Of a DNA stretch of 60,000 nt, positions 12,146 through 25,880 are shown in pieces (the stretch's first letter is position 1; the number at the start of each line of letters is the position of its first letter). Under the pieces are notes generated by a model. It had not been told where the DNA came from and ran no database searches. It was given only the letters and a program-made list of their open reading frames with translations. This DNA comes from Laetmonice hystrix (Eukaryota): assembly GCA_965235115.1 (NCBI GenBank), contig OZ249436.1:11348001-11408000 (forward strand), given 5' to 3'. A program made the translations under genes and the position numbers.

Positions 12146-15100
12146 CACTTTCAGACAGTATTGCCTCCTGTGAGCGTTTAAGCAAATTGTCTTCAATGAA
12201 AATTGTCAGGGATATGTTTAAACATATGAGGAACACGTACCTTTATTGAATGTATCTGTAGAGCTTATAGAAAATCAGATTTGGGGTAATTTGGGAATTA
12301 AAACAAACCCTGTTTTGCCGTTAGAATTTGGATTGGATTGACGGCGGGTCAGCTTATCAGTGGTGTATCTCATGTGGTGGTGTTATCTTGGTGACCTAGT
12401 TGCTAGGATACCAGTCAGACCCTAGCATGTCACTGGCTCCTGCTTCACTAGCCCCTCCCTGTAGCCCATATATGGCTTTATTGCTGTCCGTACGGACTTC
12501 GAGGGGGCTATGATACCCCCCTTTAAGTCAGATTTTGAGATTTTAGTAACCGGGCCCAGGTAAACTAAAATAAAATGCAATTAAAGTAAACTCTGGACAG
12601 CTATAAAAACTGCTGACTATAAGATACTGTTTTCTTTTAAGGAAAAGTACAATATTGACTGACACTTTTCATAAAGTACAATATTGACTGACACACTCGT
12701 TTAGTGTAAGAAACAATATAACCGTAAAGATTTAAGTACGGATGTATAAATGGCACTCCTCACATAAGTAAAGCGTGGCAGCCTTCGAGCAGAAACAGGG
12801 TTTGACATGGATTGACAATATGTGTGGCCAATACGCCCATACATAGGCTTACAGCGCATATTGCAGTGGGCTCTACCTCGACAGATGGCAGATCATGTCT
12901 CGGCCGTAATCGTCAGGTCGCCATTTTTGAAAGTAGTCACACAACAAAACAAACCCATGTGCTTTCCACAGCTGCCATCTTGGCCTTTGTCGCTATAAAA
13001 AAATTCTAGTGTGTGTTTACGGAAGGAATCTGCCGACGGTGATTAGAGTTCAGTTATGTGAAATAACGTCCTCCTTCGTATCTCGCCTAGACTGCCTCAC
13101 CAGTTTCCGAGCGCTTAGCGCTAGCAGTACTGTGCGTGCCCGTGTCGCCGCTGTCGGCTGGGACTGAGTCAGCGAGTGTTGTCAATGTGTTGAGTGTGGG
13201 CGATGTGGCCAACGATGAATGGAGGCATAAGCCATTTCCGAGTTGAGCATGTTTCTTTCTGTTTTGGTTTAACTGCCGCGACTTTTCTTTGGTTATCGGA
13301 CAGTTTTCAAGTGCATAATGCAAACACTCACCAACCGCTGCCATTACGCTGTAGGGATTACTTGGTCAGCGCGCATTGTGCCCCCTGCCTGCTTACTCAG
13401 TATTCATTCGCGCCGCATCACAAAGTCATACAAATCTGTCCATTACACCCGAGGTGAAAATCCGAACCCATCGGAAGCTGGCGGACTTTCCCGAGGGTTC
13501 CCGAATGCGCATATTGCGGTGGCCACCATCTTATAATTGATTTGTCCCTTGACTAGGCCTATCTGTTTACTGGGACCCGTGGGAGTGACCGTCTGCCAGT
13601 AGTGTTTCCATCCGACGTCATGTTCACGACGTGACACAGTGAACGGTTCAGTCAAGCGTGTTTTATCATGTGCCCAATCTAGCTTCCCTATATGCACTAC
13701 TTACTGACGAAAATAGAATGAAAAACGTGATGTCCTACTCTCTCCAACCCAACAGTGGGACAGCTCTAGTACTTTGTACGCTTGCATGCGCGAGTTCCAT
13801 CTTCCACGTATGGATAACAGCACTGGATTACTGTCTGCGATAATATAGAACACGACAAACCCATGTGATGAGGATGAAGATAAGGATGACGGTAGTCTAT
13901 GTTTTTCCTCATGGATAGGTTATTATTATTGCTATGGTCGCTATGCCGGATTGTGGTAATCCTTACTAAGCGTGTTATAATAATATAACGGTCCTACGGC
14001 AAGGGCGACTCATTAGATTTGGCCGCAAGTAGTATACGAGAAGGGCGTACTACTCAGGCTAATGGCATCGAGAAGAACGTAATTGGGTCTAAAGGTCATG
14101 AAGTAAACAGGAACCTTTAATTGTATACATAAAAACTGGAAGCAAATGCGACAGGACCTGAAATAACAACAGGGTGTTTGTAAATCAACCATTTTTTAGT
14201 TTTGCGGTAAAGAATGTATAACAATGAGAGCTAACCCGGATGTTTACGCCGACCTTTGTGAACTTTGATCCGATTTGTAGCCAACAGGAAGCTCTTCAAT
14301 CATTGCAAGAAGCTACTTTATCCGGCTACATCCTTCTATAGCCGGTAGTCATTACCTTGGAGTATGTTGGAGAGTGCCTCTTGGCGACATTGGTGGACCG
14401 GTGGTTGGGGTAGAGTTGGACATAGCGGGGCCGGGGGAGGGGGCGGGCCTGCTGCTGGCCGATAGGCAGCGAGGGCGGCACACCGAGATATCGGAGGACA
14501 TCCAGCCGGGCGTCTGCCGCCCTCCGCCGGGAGGTGGCGGTACCTCGGCCTGCTTTCACGGTCAACCTCCTGGCCGTCATTATTTGAGCCATTCAGCCTC
14601 GAGTCGCTCCTATATAGCTTGCAGCTACACCATGACAGTGCACGACTTATAGGCCAGCACCGACTTATGCAAAGACAGTAGCAGTAGGCGAAAGGCAAAC
14701 TGATGTGGGCGGTCATGACCCCAGGACGAACTCCCTAATCCTTATGTCAGGAATACTAATTTTAGCGCATGTCGAGACATCTACACCCTTCCAACTGTCA
14801 CCTGAGAAACAGAAATCCATTTGGAATGTGTCTGACTACTCGCGCTACATTATGGAAATTTCTAGAAACAACGGGAGTTAAATACTACCATGGTCTGGTG
14901 GTGACACACACATAAATGTGTGGGTGTGTGGGTGTAGGTCAATAAGCAGCTCATTGCACACATACAGAGAACGTTTTGTGTGTGTATTAAATACAGAAAC
15001 TTTTTGTATTTAATACAAAAAGTTTTTGTATTAAATACAAAAAGTTTTTGTATTAAATATAAACAGTTTTTGTATTAAATTTAAAAGTTTTTGTATTAAA

Positions 15101-16689
15101 TACAAGAGCTTTTTTTATTAAATATACCCACTGTGGGGCGGTGGCCTCACAGTAGGTGGTCTGTATTTTTCTTTTGAAATGCACGGGCATCAGGGGTAAC
15201 CCAATTACTTTGACAATGTCCCTAAAGAGAAAAGTTGTATAGTCCTCTACATGAATCGAACCCAGGGTATTCAGACTCCCATTGTCTGGGTGGCGTACAG
15301 ATTCCTCTAAGGTAATTGATACATGATAAACAAATGGACAGTTAATGAGATGTTAGATTCTATGAAGAGCAATACACTAAGCAATGAACTTTAGATATGC
15401 ACCATTTACTTTCTGTAGTATATATACGGAAAGTTGTTGTATTTAATACAAAAGGTGGTCTTAAATACAAAAAGTTTTAGTATTAAACAAAAGAAAATTA
15501 TGTAATAAAGGCACGTTGTAACCGAAGGTTCAACGAATTTTATGCAGGAAAACACGAGAGGCCTACTGTCTGAATCAGTGCCGTCATGGCAACAACTTTC
15601 TGGGTCATGTGTTGAATAATTATGTCACGCCGAATCCCATCATGCATCATGCCGCAACCGGTTGACGACCGTGACGTTGTCCTTGAATCTTCCCACTTTC
15701 TTCAAGACACGCAGGGTAACGGTTTTCAGTGTCAACGGTCGCATTTTATCACTCTCAATCGTCTTAATTTTAGTTCATCCGAGGTTGGGTTTCTAGTCAC
15801 GTCTTTATAAAATGGTCACCCGTCTATTGTACTTGCTTTCATTTTCTAGGCATAGTCTGTTGGCCTAGGTTTAGCATAGAACGTGTATCTTTATATCTCT
15901 TAGGATTTAGGCTAAGCAAAATGGCGTCTGGGTACGTCTTGATTCTTAGTGACAGCATTCATCTTCGTCGTCCTGTCACAGATACCCAAGGAGTTTAGTT
16001 CTAGAGTGAATCCGAATTTAACGTCACCGTTAGTTCTTTACTATCGGGGTAGATCTAGATCTAGTGAATGTGGCTGTAGTTTTGTTATAGTCAATATAGA
16101 TCTAGTTGATTGATAATGATAGACACTACTCACTAGTCCTGGGTCACTAGGCTAGCCGGTCTAACTGGATCGACTTGTCTTATGATAGTTAGCCTGAGCC
16201 TACATTAGCGTTTAATCTAACGACGTTAGTTATGACTACATTGTATATCTACTAGTACTAGTTTAGAATCTAGTAACCTCGTTAGTCACTTATTGACTTA
16301 GTGTTTGACGTTGGCTCTGAGGACGGGTGGCTACGTGTCGTGTCTATTAAAATGCCATGTTGTTACTGAACAATTTAGATATTAATTTTGTCGTGCGGGA
16401 GTAGATCTACAAGAGTGACCGTTTTGTTTTCATCCATCATTCATTGGTTATTTCCTATTCAGCTATTGCCAATGTTTCCCTACACATGTAAGTTATTGTA
16501 TAAATGCTACCTTAACCTGATATTAATATTACATTAAATTCATTCTATTGGCCACGGTTTCTTTATACATTATTGATACATTACAGCATATTTGTGAATG
16601 ATGATTGATATTATTGGGATATGTATCCCGTATATTGTACGTTACGGGGCCTGTTTAATTAATCTGGCTACGTGTGTTGTATATATATA

Positions 16690-19250
16690 TTTCTATTGCT
16701 ACATTATACACCTTATTATTATTGCTATATTTAGACCTTATTGGGAGACCGTTTGGTTCTCTTCATTATTGGTCACATTTTATTATTATTGATATTAATG
16801 GGATTTATATCCCGTAATATATTTTTGCGTTGGGCTCTGTCATCGAGAGACTATACTGTTTTCTCTTTGATCAGTAGTTCCAATTTTCTTTTCAGTCTTT
16901 ATATGTTTATTATTGCTACATTATCCACCTTATTATTGCTATAGACCTTATCGGGAGACCGTTTGGTTCTCTTCATTATTGGTCACATTTTATTATGATT
17001 GATAAAAATGGGATTTATATCCCGTATTTTTGTGTTGGGCTCTGTCATCGAGAGACTATCATGTTTTCTCTTTGATCAGTAGTTCCAATTTTCTTTTCAG
17101 TCTTTATATGTTTATTATTGCTACATTATACACCTTATTATTGCTATAGACCTTATTGGGAGACCGTTTGGTTCTCTTCATTATTGGTCACATTTTATTA
17201 TGATTGATTGATATTAATGGGATTTATATCTCGTATATTTGTGTTGGGCTCTGTCATCGAGAGACTATACTGTTTTCTCTTTGATCAGTAGTTCCAATTT
17301 TCTTTTCAGTCTTTATATATGTTTATTATTGCTACATTATACACCTTATTATTGCTATAGACCTTATTGGGAGACCGTTTGGTTCTCTTCATTATTGGTC
17401 ACATTTTATTATGATTGATATTAATGGGATTTATATCCCGTATTTTTGTGTTGGGCTCTGTCATCGAGAGACTATCATGTTTTCTCTTTGATCAGTAGTT
17501 CCAATTTTCTTTTACGTCATTATTTTTATTATTATTGCTACATTATACTCCTTTTTATTGCTATATTTAGACCTTATTGGGAGACCGTTTGGTTTTCTTC
17601 ATTATTGGTCACATTTTATTATGATTGATATTAATGGGATTTATATCCTTTATTTTTGTGTTGGGCTCTGTCATCGAGAGACTATACTGTTTTCTCTTTG
17701 ATCAGTAGTTCCAATTTTCTTTTCAGTCTTTATATATGTTTATTATTGCTACATTATACACCTTATTATTGCTATAGACCTTATTGGGAGACCGTTTGGT
17801 TCTCTTCATTATTGGTCACATTTTATTATGATTGATATTAATGGGATTTATATCCCGTATTTTTGTGTTGGGCTCTGTCATCGAGAGACTATCATGTTTT
17901 CTCTTTGATCAGTAGTTCCAATTTTCTTTTACGTCATTATTTTTATTATTATTGCTACATTATACTCCTTTTTATTGCTATATTTAGACCTTATTGGGAG
18001 ACCGTTTGGTTTTCTTCATTATTGGTCACATTTTATTATGATTGATATTAATGGGATTTATATCCTTTATTTTTGTGTTGGGCTCTGTCATCGAGAGACT
18101 ATCATGTTTTCTCTTTGATCAGCAGTTCCAATTTTCTTTCCAGTCTTTATATGTTTATTATTGCTACATTATACACCTTATTATTGCTATAGACCTTATT
18201 GGGAGACCGTTTGGTTCTCTTCATTATTGGTCACATTTTATTATGATTGATTGATATTAATGGGATTTATATCCCGTATATATATTTTTGTGTTGGGCTC
18301 TGTCATCGAGAGACTATCATATTTTCTCTTTGATCAGTAGTTCCAATTTTCTTTTCAGTCTTTACATTTTTATTATTGCTATATTATACACCTTATTATT
18401 GCTATATTTAGACCTTATTGGGAGACCGTTTGGTTCTCTTCATTATTGGTCACATTTTATTATGATTGATTGATATTAATGGGATTTATATCCCGTATAT
18501 ATATTTTTGTGTTGGGCTCTGTCATCGAGAGACTATCATATTTTCTCTTTGATCAGTAGTTCCAATTTTCTTTTCAGTCTTTATATTTTTATTATTGCTA
18601 TATTATACACCTTATTATTGCTATATTTAGACCTTATTGGGAGACCGTTTGGTTCTCTTCATTATTGGTCACATTTTATTATGATTGATTGATATTATTG
18701 GGATTTATATCCCGCATATATATTTTTGTGTTGGGCTCTGTCATCGAGAGACTATCATATTTTCTCTTTGATCAGTAGTTCCAATTTTCTTTTCAGTCTT
18801 TATATTTTTATAATCACCACATTATACACCTTATTATTGCTATATTTAGACCTTATTGGGAGACCGTTTGGTTCTCTTCATTATTGGTCACATTTTATTT
18901 TTATGATTGGAATTAATGGGATTTATATCCCGTATATATTTTTGTGTTGGGCTCTGTCATCGAGAGACTATCATATTTTCTCTTTGATCAGCTGTTCCAA
19001 TTTTCTTTTTAGTCTTATATTTTTATTATTGCTACATTATACACCTTATTAATGCTGTATTTAGACCTTATTGGGAGACCGTTTGGTTCTCTTCATTATT
19101 GGTCACATTTGATTATGATTGATATTAATGGGATTTATATCTCGTATATATATTTTTGTGTTGGGCTCTGTCATCGGGAAACTATTGGGTTTTCTCTTTG
19201 ATCAGCAGTTCTAATTTTCTTTCAGTCTCTATTAATTTATTATTGCTACA
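16690..19250. repeat. About 205-219-bp tandem array (about 12 copies) inside the element
   Basis: Recurring gaccttattgggagaccgtttgg...ctctgtcatcgagagactat. Confidence 0.9.
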
Positions 19251-20340
19251 TTTTACTTCGCTTCGGCGATACAATATATTATTCTATCGGCCTGATATGA
19301 CATTGAGAGATCGTTGGGCTTATGCTGGATTATCAACCCCTTCTCATGTCTGGCTCACATTTAGTTTACCCGATTGATTTTGTTTCAATACTTTGTTTTG
19401 CTTTGATGATACAATATATTATTCTATTGGCCTGATATGACATTGAGAGATCGTTGGGCTTATGCTAGATTAGCAGCCCTTCCCATGTCTGGCTCACATT
19501 TACCCAATTGATTTTTGTTTCAATACTTTGTGTTTGCTTCGGCGATACAAGATATTATTGCTATTGGCCTGATATGACATTAAGAGATCGTTGGGCTTAT
19601 CCTGGATTAGCAGCCCTTCTCATGTCTGGCTCACATTTACCCAATTGATTTTGTTTCAATACTTTGTGTTTGCTTCGGCGATACAATATATTATTGCTAT
19701 TCAGTATTGCCCTGATATGACATTAAGAGATCGTTGGGCTTATGCTGGATTAGCGGCCCCTTCTCATCATGTCTGGCTCACATTTACCCAATTGATTTGT
19801 TTCAATTCATATTATATTACCTCAGTTGATGTGATATATTCACGATACATAGACTCTTTTATTGAGATTGATATTATACTTTGTCTCTGCTTCAGTGATG
19901 CAATATATTTACTTGATATTGGCCTGATATGACATTGAGGGATCGTTGGGCTTATGCTGAATTAGCAGCCCTTCTTATGTCTGGCTCACATTTACCCGAC
20001 TGATTTATTTCAATTCATACTGTATTACTTTACTTCATTACTGTTGATGTGACATGTACACAATACATAGTCTTTTTATTGAGATTATATAATATACTTT
20101 GTCTTTGCTTCAGTGATGCAATATTATATTTACTTGATATTGGCCTCATATGACATACCAGTCCCAAATTTTCAGTCTCTTAATATTTATATTATTATAC
20201 TTTTTGCTTCAGTGATTCAACATTATAGTTAATTGATATTGGCCACTGCATATATGCCAATGCCAATGAGAGATCGCTGGGATTCGACTGTCCTGAGTTT
20301 GCAGCCCATCTAAGATCTGGCTCACATTTAACCATTTTAC
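19250..20340. repeat. About 140-bp diverged tandem array inside the element
   Basis: Recurring ggcctgatatgacattgagagatcgttgggcttatgc...tctggctcacattt. Confidence 0.85.
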
Positions 20341-23300
20341 TTACGTTGCAATTACATCAAGTGATGTGATACGTTCACGACATAAATATTGTGTTCACTG
20401 TTAGGCTCAGCCATTGAGAGACCATCGAGTGTTCTGTTGGATCAGCGCGACAGCAGTTCAAATGTTCAGTCTCTTTATATTTACATGTATATTTATTTTA
20501 CTTTTTGCTGCTTCAGAGATACATTATTATAATATTAACAATATTTTGTTGGCCGTATATGCCATTGGGAGATCGTGGGTTTCCCCTGGATTAGCAGGCT
20601 ATCAGTATCACATGTGTGCCTAACATTTGATTTACGTTCAATTTATATTATATTACATTTATGTTATTATACATGTATATGTATTATTATTACATGTAAA
20701 CCATGGTTTTTCGCCACTGATTGACATATCATCTAGGCTTATCTCTATCATCAAATTCGTAGATATCAGTTCAATTTCATAATCGTATATTACGTAACGA
20801 TTTACATTATGCTAAATGAATTATTCAGTATAATATTATACTTGCCCTATACGGCCAATGTTATACACAACATGAATTATTTAATCTGGGGGTTTTGTCA
20901 TTGACTTTGGCTCTACAATGAGCCCTTCAATTCAATCAACTTCAATGAGCGGGTTGTTACCCTGGCCTGTTCCCTTGTACGGCTTCTGTTCATGATGGCG
21001 ACTACACGATTGAGGTCCAAGCCCAAGCTCCCACGGAATTCTCCGATCTCCATGCCCCCATGCAAGAGGGAGCGTCTCATTATGGGTCAAGCGGAACCGG
21101 GTCGGCCTCGACTATTTCGCAAGGATTCGCGGCTGGTGTCCAGACAGTTCCCATTTACGACTGTTCAGGGAGGTTGGACATGGGAGTTCGGCCCGGCCTG
21201 AGCCTTGACTGGGTACTCCCAGTCTCTTCCAGACCATTCTTGCTGTGGCCAGATGCAGTGGTGCAAGGGCAGATCTACGTGTGTGATCTGTATGATCATA
21301 TAATATTAGCAAAAGAATGTTTTTCACCAACAATCGCGGTGTCTCCTTGAAACTTCGTATGGACGCTTCAGTTAAAGTGGGATTTGGAGCGGTTTTTCGG
21401 ATCTGACTAGATAATAGGCCTAGCCGGTGTCCATCTTCGTTGGATCGACAAGATGTTTTTATTGGAGCTATACCTCCGTTCTTTTTGCAGTTGCCCTGTG
21501 TGGGGAATATGTTTGAAACTCCATGGTTGAGTTTCATACCATAACATTTGTGACACAATCATTAACTCAACTTGACCTTCAAAGAATCAAGGAAACAAGG
21601 GAAAGCAGATGATTTGCATCGGTTGCAGAATGGGCGTTTCATTTCCCTGCATCCCTGCACTGTGTGTTGTGGGTGGCTCCACCTGCTTGTTCCAAGCAGG
21701 TTAGTGGCCTGCGTCGCCACTCACATTGAACTGTTCAACACATTTTTAACCCTTTAACACATATTTTTGAACGATAATGTTCCTATTTTTAGATTTGGGA
21801 ACATAGACATTAATGGTTTCGAGACGGTGCAGTGTGGACTCACTGTCAAGAGTAATACCAATTCATGGACATTTACTTATTGTTACCGTTAGTTGTAATT
21901 TTCTACCATATCTATTCCCATGACAATGCAGTGTGGGCTCATTGTCAAAAATGGGACATTAATGGTTTCGAGACGGTGCAGTGGGGGCTCACTGTCAAGA
22001 GTAATACCAATTCATGGACACTTACTTATTGTTACCGTTAGTTGTAATTTTCTACCATATCTATTCCCATGACAATGCAGTGTGGGCTCATTGTCATAAA
22101 TGGGATGGTGACACCCTTTCTGTTCAGAAATAACCTAATTGTCCTAAACCTTTAATTAATGTTGGACACGTGCAGTGTGGGCTCACTGTCCAACTTATAT
22201 TTTTAATATTATAATAAACGGGTGTTGCCCAAATAACAACATTATCTGTTTCCGAGTGTTGCCTGCATAAAGGCACGTTGTAACCGAAGGTTCAACGAAT
22301 TTTATGCAGGAAAACACGAGAGGCCTACTGTCTGAATCAGTGCCGTCATGGCAACAACTTTCTGGGTCATGTGTTGAATAATTATGTCACGCCGAATCCC
22401 ATCATGCATCATGCCGCAACCGGTTGACGACCGTGACGTTGTCCTTGAATCTTCCCACTTTCTTCAAGACACGCAGGGTAACGGTTTTCAGTGCCTCCAC
22501 CGCCCCACCTGCCGCCTTAGGCCATTTGTTTTATGCGCTCTGCGTCGCCACTCACATTGAACTGTTCAACACATTTTTAACCCTTTAACACATATTTTTG
22601 AACGATAATGTTCCTATTTTTAGATTTGGGAACATAGACATTAATGGTTTCGAGACGGTGCAGTGTGGACTCACTGTCAAGAGTAATACCAATTCATGGA
22701 CATTTACTTATTGTTACCGTTAGTTGTAATTTTCTACCATATCTATTCCCATGACAATGCAGTGTGGGCTCATTGTCAAAAATGGGACATTAATGGTTTC
22801 GAGACGGTGCAGTGGGGGCTCACTGTCAAGAGTAATACCAATTCATGGACACTTACTTATTGTTACCGTTAGTTGTAATTTTCTACCATATCTATTCCCA
22901 TGACAATGCAGTGTGGGCTCATTGTCATAAATGGGATGGTGACACCCTTTCTGTTCAGAAATAACCTAATTGTCCTAAACCTTTAATTAATGTTGGACAC
23001 GTGCAGTGTGGGCTCACTGTCCAACTTATATTTTTAATATTATAATAAACGGGTGTTGCCCAAATAACAACATTATCTGTTTCCGAGTGTTGCCTGCATA
23101 AAAAGGTTTCTGTATTTAATACATAAAGTTTTAGTATTTAATACAAAACTTTTTGCATTTATTACATGCACACAAAACTTTCTGTGTATGTGTGCAATAA
23201 GCTGGTTATTGACCTACACCTACACACACGTGTGTGTATATCACCTCCAGACCATGGTACAATACAGAATGACAACTGCACGGATATGCTCGAGGCCTTG

Positions 23301-23389
23301 TGATCGAGGCGGTTAGCCATTCTGTTCAATCTCGAGTCTCTACAGCCTTCAAAACAATACTAAAGGCAAGGTATATATTAAAAACAGAC

Positions 23390-23395
23390 TTTATT
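23390..23395 (-). promoter_or_regulatory. Possible polyadenylation signal of the cadherin gene
   Basis: AATAAA on the minus strand about 2.5 kb after the stop codon; no transcript evidence. Confidence 0.3.
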
Positions 23396-25880
23396 CTTAA
23401 TCCTTCATAAAACAGATATACATGTCCAAATGTTTAAATTAGAAAATAAGAATGTTCTGCTTTGAGCCATTTCGGTTAATAACACATATAAAAATTGCAC
23501 CTTAGTGATATACAACTGACGCTCCAGGCGATACCATTTGGATTGGTTGTCGCGTCGGGTCGGACGCTCCGTTACCGTTATCTGTATCATCTAATGTGTT
23601 AATCCTAGTAAGAGCTCCATCTCTAGACATTTTTAGATGAAAACAATCTGGTCCCTATAACCCACCCCATCCCAGATCTTCGACCCTATATATATCCCAC
23701 CCACTCCCAAATATTACCTGCTATAGTCTGCCCTGTCAGTAACAGATGTACTACTTCCCATATTGTACCTTTAGTCGGCACCGTTTACCTCGGTTCAGGC
23801 TGCTTACGTCACACAACCTTATTAGAGGGTGATATGTCATGCACTTGGAATGTAAGAATGATCAAATTATTTATACATGATTTATAACAGTCTATCACAC
23901 AAATACGTCTTCTTCTGAAATGTTCTATGTCATCACATTTACTTCTATATCCCTCAAAGGTTGCGTATTCTAAATATATAAAATGCCGTCAATCTTGGCC
24001 AATGTTCTCACAAATATGCTGCTCGAAAATACTTCCCCCCAACCGTTTCGAGTGGATTTTAGATCCTACAATCGAGCACCTGCACGGGGGAGGAAATGGC
24101 ACCAAGGTCAGTCCTACTGACGCGCCTCTACAGAATACAATTTAAGAGAGAATGACCCAAAATGCCAATTCACTGAGGAGAGAATTCTTATACTTCTAGG
24201 TACAACAAGGAATACCCGACATTTGAACACTCAGATTGTGACTACAATGTAATCCATTAGTCTGTTTGTGGATGACCTGTTCACAAGACGGAAACTCCAC
24301 CGCTAATACATGTCCCTAATTACATTATTAGGGTATCCGTAAAGATTCGGGTCAAACTATATACATTTTTTTAATCTCAGTAAGTACCACAGATTATCAT
24401 GCAAATAAAAAAATTCATGAGTCATGTTGTACTCTATTTATAGCTGTACTATATTTATACATGTGCTTCAGTCCAAGTGATTTTTGTTACTAACTGGAAC
24501 CTAGTCGGCCGAGCTAGACAATCCCGGATGGCTCCTATAGTTTATGGGGGAGGGGGGGGGGGGCATAAAGATTGACCCTTGCTCTATTTCTGACCCGGGG
24601 AAAGAACCCCACGATAGATGTTGGTGCCTGATATTTTGTTACATCGTTGTCAATTGCTCACATTTCTGTACAAAAACACTCGGCTTTAGGTTGTTGCAAA
24701 CCCAAATATCGCCCATGTGTAAGTTCCCCCAACCCCCCTACAATCTACTTTGTATATCCCGTGTCAGAATCAATGTTATCTTTAGTAAATGGAAACAAAG
24801 CCATTTTATCTCAACACATATATAAGTGGATGCTTAGATCCTTTTATAAAGTCAGCCCATGAAAAGAAAGCGATAGCCGCAGCTACAAGGCAGAATATTT
24901 GTTACATGTTATGTGCAGGGGGCAAACTGGTGTTCGCCCCGAACGAGCCCTTCTGTGCAACTGAACCCTTGTATCTAACGTAGATCGGTGGGAAGGTTCA
25001 CACTCTGCCGACAGGTGGCGGTCGTCTACCATCGCCTGACACTGTACACCTACAGTATACCACCAGGAACACAACAACACATCACACTATACACATTGAT
25101 CATGGACATTGATACCCAAAACATGTCGATATCCACAGCTGGTTTTAAAAACTGGCGCAATTATATCATACAAATTACCTACATATGTCACATTCCTAGT
25201 CCCTACTGTCGCCTTCTCTCAATCTGATTCATACATCTTCAAGTATAAAAGCTAAAAAAAAAACGCACACAGAAAGCGCGGCGCCGTATACAAAGTCTGT
25301 ATCAAATAGATGAAATATTCTTCAAAAAGACCGGACCTTCTCCCAAGGTCCGGTCACACGGTCAAATGGTCTAGCCTGTCATTGTATTCCGTGTGTATGG
25401 AAGAGCGTGATTGTATAATCATCATTTTATAGAAAAAAAAACTATAACAAGACGTCATGAACACCTGGCTGACGTTAAAACTTTCGTTCACACCCTCACA
25501 ACGACAGAACTGCGGCGATTATAACGACAGAAAAACAATGATATCGAATGAAGTGCACGGGATGCAGTTCTGGATAGCTTGGTGTCAGCTTATACAAAAT
25601 GTCTGACACCGACAGAGAGAGAGAGAGAGAAAAACAGAATCATTTCTATCCACTTGTACATTCCAATTCACCGTTCGTCGCCTTCTAGCTAGAGCTTTGG
25701 TTGTCATCAACGAACTCGCTCGTCCCGTTCGTGGATATAATTACACAACTAAAGTGTTTACCATCTTTCATTATCGACTTATATTGTTCAGTCTATATGG
25801 CAGTTTGTTCCCCCCGACAGTTTCTGCGTGTGTTATGTATGTATGTGTGTCCATTGACCCGAGAACGGCCGACTTGGCTC

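Follow-up and report, generated by a model that had tools for sequence, protein, structure and literature searches.

The 60,000-nucleotide stretch of the Laetmonice hystrix genome analysed here (assembly GCA_965235115.1, contig OZ249436.1, positions 11,348,001 to 11,408,000 of the forward strand; hereafter the window) carries at 15505-23102 a mobile element that interrupts a miniature inverted-repeat transposable element (MITE). The insert is very probably a young, non-autonomous retroelement of the split-direct-repeat group that relies on a tyrosine recombinase (YR), belonging to the DIRS order of retroelements and having the layout of Ngaro, PAT and VIPER elements. This layout is already known; what is new is an imperfect hairpin at the internal B/A repeat junction, which holds the crossover core in one arm and which, we tentatively propose, may be recombined as a folded single strand.

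Along the element the repeats run A1-internal-B1-A2-46 bp-B2, which is the standard split-repeat order (Table 1). The A copies are identical over 227 bp and the B copies over 563 bp (100% identity in each pair), giving 0 differences in 790 bp and excluding chance as the source of 790 identical bases. The pentamer ATAAA at 22267-22271 is the overlap of B1 with A2 and stands again at both outer ends. An earlier note, made from the letters of the window, had given this order, the identity of the repeats and the letters of the left, internal B/A and right junctions, and our coordinates and identities agree with it. The structural features of the group present here are the order, A1=A2 and B1=B2, a short core at the ends, at the junction and once in the target, and dispersed copies with fixed ends.

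Table 1. Parts of the element and of its host MITE in the window.
Feature	Positions	Strand	Remarks
Host MITE, left part	14886-15504		terminal inverted repeat, 22-bp palindromic subrepeats, ~300-bp interior
A1 repeat	15505-15731	+	core AAA 15507-15509; AT 15505-15506 common to target at locus
Left unique interior	15732-16693	+	non-coding
Satellite array	16694-19256	+	~210-bp unit x12, units 93-100% alike
137-bp unit x4 (19260-19806) and decayed units	19260-20660	+	
Right unique interior	20661-21708	+	longest open frames 98-148 aa; six frames without Pfam family
B1 repeat	21709-22271	+	two 149-bp tandem units inside; AAA core at end
B/A junction hairpin	22256-22317		DNA folding
A2 repeat	22267-22493	+	same sequence as A1
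Spacer	22494-22539	+	46 bp, GC-rich, family-wide
B2 repeat	22540-23102	+	same sequence as B1
Host MITE, right part	23103-23259		

Five public sequencing runs contain the stretch, none of them recorded as RNA. For evidence on other copies, contigs of the four that contain at least half of its words (X1 to X4; X5 has a share of 0.05) were placed on 22150-25500; X4 has a very uneven, transcriptome-like depth and was not used as evidence of expression. Exact-match contig depth in X3 was 4504 for A and 4651 for B versus 55 for the unique flank; in X2, A reached 1609 versus 41, and the spacer reached 1582 versus 53 in X1 and 771 versus 41 in X2. The ratio of element to flank is about 85-90 in X1 and X3 and about 40 in X2. 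Because A, B and the spacer all lie far above the unique flank, the family comprises tens of copies, and A-spacer-B is a feature of the family as a whole.

These copies have a fixed left end. Their match begins at 22269, at AAA, in at least four contigs of X1, four of X2 and five of X3, and the loose letters further left agree among contigs only to 0.53-0.56, as different flanks would; right ends were found in at least two contigs of X1 and at least one each of X2 and X3. Since the left ends match from 22269, the family core is probably AAA (3 bp), the extra AT at 15505-15506 being the target's own. In X1, X2 and X3, moreover, a contig at flank depth (53, 41 and 55) begins to match at 23098 and runs on leftward for 158-267 further letters, and its joint letters are those of window positions 15496-15504 and 15454-15463, each unique in the window. 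These contigs are the empty site, consisting of the left flank, a single ATAAA and the right flank, and as the core stands there once, the insertion added the element plus one core, without loss. Over 1453 bases the X1 empty-site contig has a single difference from the window; given that contigs can mix alleles, this is no more than a hint that the insertion is very recent and polymorphic. The earlier note had called the element young, had expected dispersed copies with the same ends and had proposed a comparison with empty copies of the host MITE. Youth and a dispersed family with fixed ends are supported, and empty sites appeared in three of the four runs. Its view that integration used a short core holds in that the MITE is intact and carries the core once when empty, but the 5-bp ATAAA gives way to AAA, which fits the other copies.

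The family also has an older history, made up of internally deleted copies and of copies about 89% alike. Contigs at single-copy depth skip 22473-23082, 22642-22975, 22516-22749 or 22516-22578, and in one deleted copy nothing remains but some 200 bp of A and the final 21 bp of B. The join of A to the interior was found again in a copy about 89% alike, and the spacer of the window copy has three differences from the deepest contig. The B/A junction is present in other, diverged copies, independent contigs carry the B/A and A/spacer/B joins, and in X4 the depth of the B/A junction is similar to that of A-spacer-B (330, 284, 248).

The B/A junction proved to be largely self-complementary, a property that the earlier note had not mentioned. 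Read as reverse complement, A positions +30 to +46 nearly match the last 16 bases of B. In the predicted fold, the outer part comprises a 5-bp helix, a 1x2 loop and a 10-bp helix that closes with the pairs of the AAA core (AAA/TTT), and the inner part comprises a 4x3 internal loop and a 9-bp helix that has one bulged base and is capped by a 3-nt loop. The whole is an imperfect hairpin of 24 bp whose 5' arm holds the AAA crossover, next to the internal loop. As DNA it folds at -18.9 kcal/mol (z -7.1; 0 of 200 shuffles), the minus strand at -17.7 kcal/mol (z -6.3) and the RNA at -30.5 kcal/mol (z -6.5). The hairpin exists only where the end of B joins the start of A; the outer ends of the element fold far less (-7.4 kcal/mol on the left, -8.4 on the right). 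The junction ranks first among 438 windows spread across the element outside its arrays. With random left partners, 0 of 4000 trials folded as well, and with random right partners 2 of 4000 did. Single contigs give a hint that the hairpin may be conserved: in one contig of X2 the terminal loop is changed and both arms of the inner helix are kept, and loose ends in X4 at 22260 and 22315 bracket the hairpin, though these may belong to different contigs. Secondary hairpins were also seen at 21650-21740, just upstream of B1 (about -16 kcal/mol, z about -3.4), and at 22730-22940, inside B's 149-bp units (about -12 kcal/mol, z about -4).

For two published families, the junctions printed in the supplements of PMC6681497 were paired by eye, with neither folding energies nor a null model. 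In all six Trypanosoma cruzi VIPER records (one family, two records from one contig) the B1/A2 junction pairs across itself, with 8 bp, a 1x2 loop, 4 bp, a 3x1 loop, 9 bp and a 14-nt terminal loop (21 pairs, two of them G-T), and the element boundary given by the authors falls in the 5' arm. In the one Leishmania braziliensis TATE record, 12 of 14 positions pair and the shared terminal dinucleotide falls within the 5' arm. Neither 'hairpin' nor 'palindrom' occurs in the main text of PMC6681497, and no description of a junction hairpin was found in the literature searched, the group's founding papers lying outside that coverage.

In the published model, a YR recombines a 3-bp core at the junction with the same bases of the target, leaving the core at both ends (PMC7192593, PMC3266345), and the window locus fits this 3-bp-core DIRS model. 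Following the published model, RNA running from inside A1 to inside B2 would be reverse-transcribed by the reverse transcriptase (RT) of an autonomous partner, and the internal B1/A2 junction would serve as the template that rebuilds both ends, which would make A1 equal to A2 and B1 equal to B2 and give each copy a fresh B/A junction. The partner's YR would then swap strands between the AAA core and an AAA in the target, here in an A-run of the MITE. Linear complementary DNA (cDNA) that recombined at the internal junction would give a permuted order, so that the observed order needs a rebuilt B2/A1 junction. The cDNA of DIRS-1 is single-stranded and mostly linear (PMC7192593). Two bacterial systems offer an analogy: integron attC sites are imperfect single-strand hairpins whose cleavage falls in a conserved triplet next to an unpaired spacer and whose single strand exchange is resolved through replication (PMC5027507), and the CTX phage likewise integrates a folded single strand, XerC acting on its attP (PMC5357621). 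By this analogy the junction may be used by the recombinase as a folded single strand, a reading to which we give somewhat less than even weight. The enzyme would bind the outer helix and the inner helix as its two arms, the AAA and the 4x3 loop would form a 7-nt overlap region, and one strand exchange at the junction would be followed by resolution through replication or repair. That split-repeat YR retrotransposons in general (the animal family, VIPER and TATE) integrate single-stranded cDNA through a B/A hairpin, with no double-stranded circle, is a wider extrapolation and a little more doubtful; if true, it would be a case of eukaryotic structure-specific recombination and would explain why the repeats are split.

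The alternative that fares best keeps the same element and gives the hairpin another task. It would serve the RNA or reverse transcription (in priming, pausing, template jumps or packaging) or bind protein as a duplex, and a double-stranded circle would integrate. We hold an RNA or reverse-transcription role to be just as open as a folded single-strand site. The RNA fold is also strong, a 3' hairpin has been proposed as the primer of DIRS-1 (PMC7192593), any model takes the B1/A2 junction as the template for end repair, and the VIPER geometry is unlike that of the window element. Against it stands the placement of the crossover, which lies in the 5' arm in all three families and here at a helix end by the internal loop. 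In the duplex form the crossover is 15-17 bp from the symmetry centre and the arms are 29 nt apart, whereas ordinary YR sites have an overlap of 6-8 bp. In the folded form, the AAA and the four bases left unpaired beside it give an overlap of 7 nt flanked by two helices, which is the usual size for these enzymes.

Unlikely, in our judgement, is a history of two insertions at one site, in which a long A-interior-B and a short A-spacer-B, possibly Crypton-type DNA transposons, came to be joined through the core. Units of A-spacer-B are known to occur alone (SIRE, PMC6681497; solo AB, PMC8547959), the window element's family contains internally deleted short copies, and Cryptons also leave a microhomology of 4-6 bp (PMC13465315). 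What speaks against this history is that the order is the standard one, that A1 equals A2, that the B/A junction recurs in diverged copies and lies in X4 at a depth like that of A-spacer-B, and that B1 and B2 share three alleles missing from the deepest contigs. At 22600, 22815 and 22929 the two B copies agree, and the deepest contigs carry other letters, which make up 36-100% of the summed depth by place and run. These shared alleles fit, with moderate force, the copying of both B repeats from one template better than two independent insertions.

A local duplication or assembly artefact is very improbable. It would account for the perfect identity of the repeats, and the empty site in three runs (in X1 on a contig nearly identical to the window), with no filled junction among the matches listed, could be read in its favour. 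It does not account for A, B and spacer being tens of times deeper than the flank or for the B/A and A/spacer/B joins in independent contigs. An artefact, moreover, is unlikely to hit precisely the family core and add one further copy of it, and programs that build contigs often lose weakly supported connections from deep repeats into unique flanks. Penelope-like elements typically form partial tandems without regular target duplications, with variable truncated ends and hammerhead ribozymes in their repeats. Such a partial tandem with pseudo-long-terminal-repeats (pseudo-LTRs) would suit the repeats and the missing target duplication, but it is the least credible reading, as the left ends of other copies fall on one base (22269), the insertion at the core is precise, the short unit carries a spacer of its own rather than being a truncated long unit, and neither a hammerhead nor any other Rfam family matched at the gathering score within 14000-24500.

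Several observations weigh against our interpretation of a YR retroelement with a folded integration site. Remnants of gag, RT, RNase H and YR were looked for in the element and none was found, so that retrotransposition and the enzyme are read from the layout only. All four runs bear the same sample label, and depth in contigs gives a rough guide only; the spacer has 0.33-0.48 of the depth of A, where 0.5 is expected; and the fixed left end is seen in 4-5 contigs per run among those listed. The junction of B2 with the right flank, which would mark the filled site, was not among the matches listed. The depth ratio of X2 is about half that of X1 and X3 despite the common label, which may reflect library bias or different individuals. 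As to the hairpin, 17 of the 8561 natural 73-mers in the window reach the junction's stability, the VIPER junction has no inner helix past the crossover and was paired, like that of TATE, by eye only, and in the C. fasciculata record B1 is not followed by A2. If a circle carried two equal junctions, the permuted order A-spacer-B-A-interior-B would be expected as well. Finally, the window's B alleles are not rare (0-64% of the summed depth), which makes the comparison of alleles a moderate test.

The element has no coding capacity, in line with its earlier description as lacking open reading frames (ORFs), and within its group it can rank at most as non-autonomous. The longest open frames of the unique parts reach 98-148 aa, Pfam gave no credible match for eight ORFs, and 0 families were detected in 12 of 12 frames read through stops across the two unique regions. 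The idea that satellites replaced a coding region is unproven because no coding remnant reveals the replaced part. As to the arrays themselves, the decayed stretch 20340-20660 is matched by both of them (z 8.2 and 12.6), and on that ground they are probably one old amplification; compared directly, the 210-bp and 137-bp units show no significant likeness (z 1.9), and neither array is related to the 149-bp unit of B. A search of Rfam over 14000-24500 gave 12 matches, none near the gathering score.

Alongside ORFs 20905-21198 and 21115-21558 lies one at 20949-21347 (133 aa, in a GC-richer patch), which was the one taken through the deep protein searches and was rejected as a retroelement remnant. 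It had two phmmer matches among 1.84 billion proteins (E 1e-7 and 4e-4), both long, repetitive and phage-tail-fibre-like, one carrying Peptidase_S74; the likeness is 32% over 96 aa and the scores are sums over four repeats. In a second search 0 of 420 candidates scored, the Atlas matches were all under 0.9, and the tail-fibre-like matches were judged to be chance. Metagenome scans returned 0 matches in one case and in another a single match agreeing at 21 pattern letters only; scans of viral contigs for autonomous elements, with a recombinase motif, returned one chance match in a phage and, on a second scan, 0.

The host MITE, 781 bp long without the insert, has inverted-repeat arms (14886-15049 and 23101-23259) that are 81% alike and 22-bp palindromic subrepeats at both ends. 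It is probably flanked by a TA target duplication and is multi-copy in the runs, with up to 25 contigs at 23133 among those listed. To its right, exons of a large cadherin gene lie on the minus strand at 25771-58797 (PF00028 matched in three of seven ORFs scanned), with a transmembrane-like exon near 34900-35100 and what is probably the last exon at 25771-26040. The high depth of run X4 at 23499-25145 may mark the 3' untranslated region of this gene, the element lying some 400 bp beyond. The end of the gene is thus probably only some hundreds of bases rightward of the element, which would sit just past its 3' end. Elsewhere, a perfect 25-bp inverted repeat with a 4-nt loop (11803-11856; about -32 kcal/mol) adjoins an imperfect one at about 11950-12145, both probably small mobile elements, and the whole window yields 64 Tandem Repeats Finder rows, most introns having a minisatellite of their own (units of 15-109 bp).

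Taken by itself the element is an ordinary, tidy case of a known layout, and the observed empty site is an uncommon benefit. The priming, end rebuilding and integration of DIRS-order elements are still known as models only. A hairpin with the crossover in one arm offers a short, defined substrate and predicts compensatory changes, strand choice and permuted insertions; it may also mark the exact ends of split-repeat elements.

We file the element by its layout (defined in PMC6681497, PMC9210276 and PMC8547959) and not as Ngaro, since without coding sequence there is no RT or YR by which to place it in Ngaro or PAT, and the separation of Ngaro from PAT turns on RT/YR phylogeny and on the lack of a methyltransferase domain. 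Like the Ngaro elements DIRS-53_XT of Xenopus (PMC9210276) and of Cafeteria (PMC8547959), it has the order A1-[body]-B1-A2-B2 with 100% identical copies; the DIRS-53_XT repeats, at 236 and 152 bp, are of the same order of size (PMC9210276), and deleted and solo AB forms exist there too (PMC8547959). Unlike them, it has no gag, RT/RNase H, YR or hydrolase, its body is mostly satellite, and its B is longer and contains a tandem. TOC elements likewise have split repeats (PMC3266345). In the window element, found in an animal host, a unique spacer separates A2 from B2 and the interior contains tandem repeats. In these features and in being non-coding it is like TOC1 of Chlamydomonas reinhardtii (PAT group), a non-autonomous element with a spacer between A2 and B2 and an internal tandem array, but it differs from it in host. 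With VIPER and SIRE of T. cruzi and TATE of L. braziliensis (PMC6681497) it shares the repeat order, a short A2-B2 derivative and, by eye, an imperfect palindrome spanning the join of B1 and A2 whose 5' arm contains the element boundary; VIPER and TATE are autonomous and restricted to kinetoplastids, their helices and loops have other sizes, and no likeness in sequence is claimed. Integron attC (PMC5027507) and CTX phage attP (PMC5357621), in turn, are bacterial and biochemically proven, whereas the window hairpin is like them in structure only and the element is not an integron cassette. The likeness comprises an imperfect two-helix hairpin with central and terminal loops and a bulged base, a crossover at a 3-base microhomology in the 5' arm beside a loop, and an enzyme of the tyrosine recombinase class, which for the window element is presumed.

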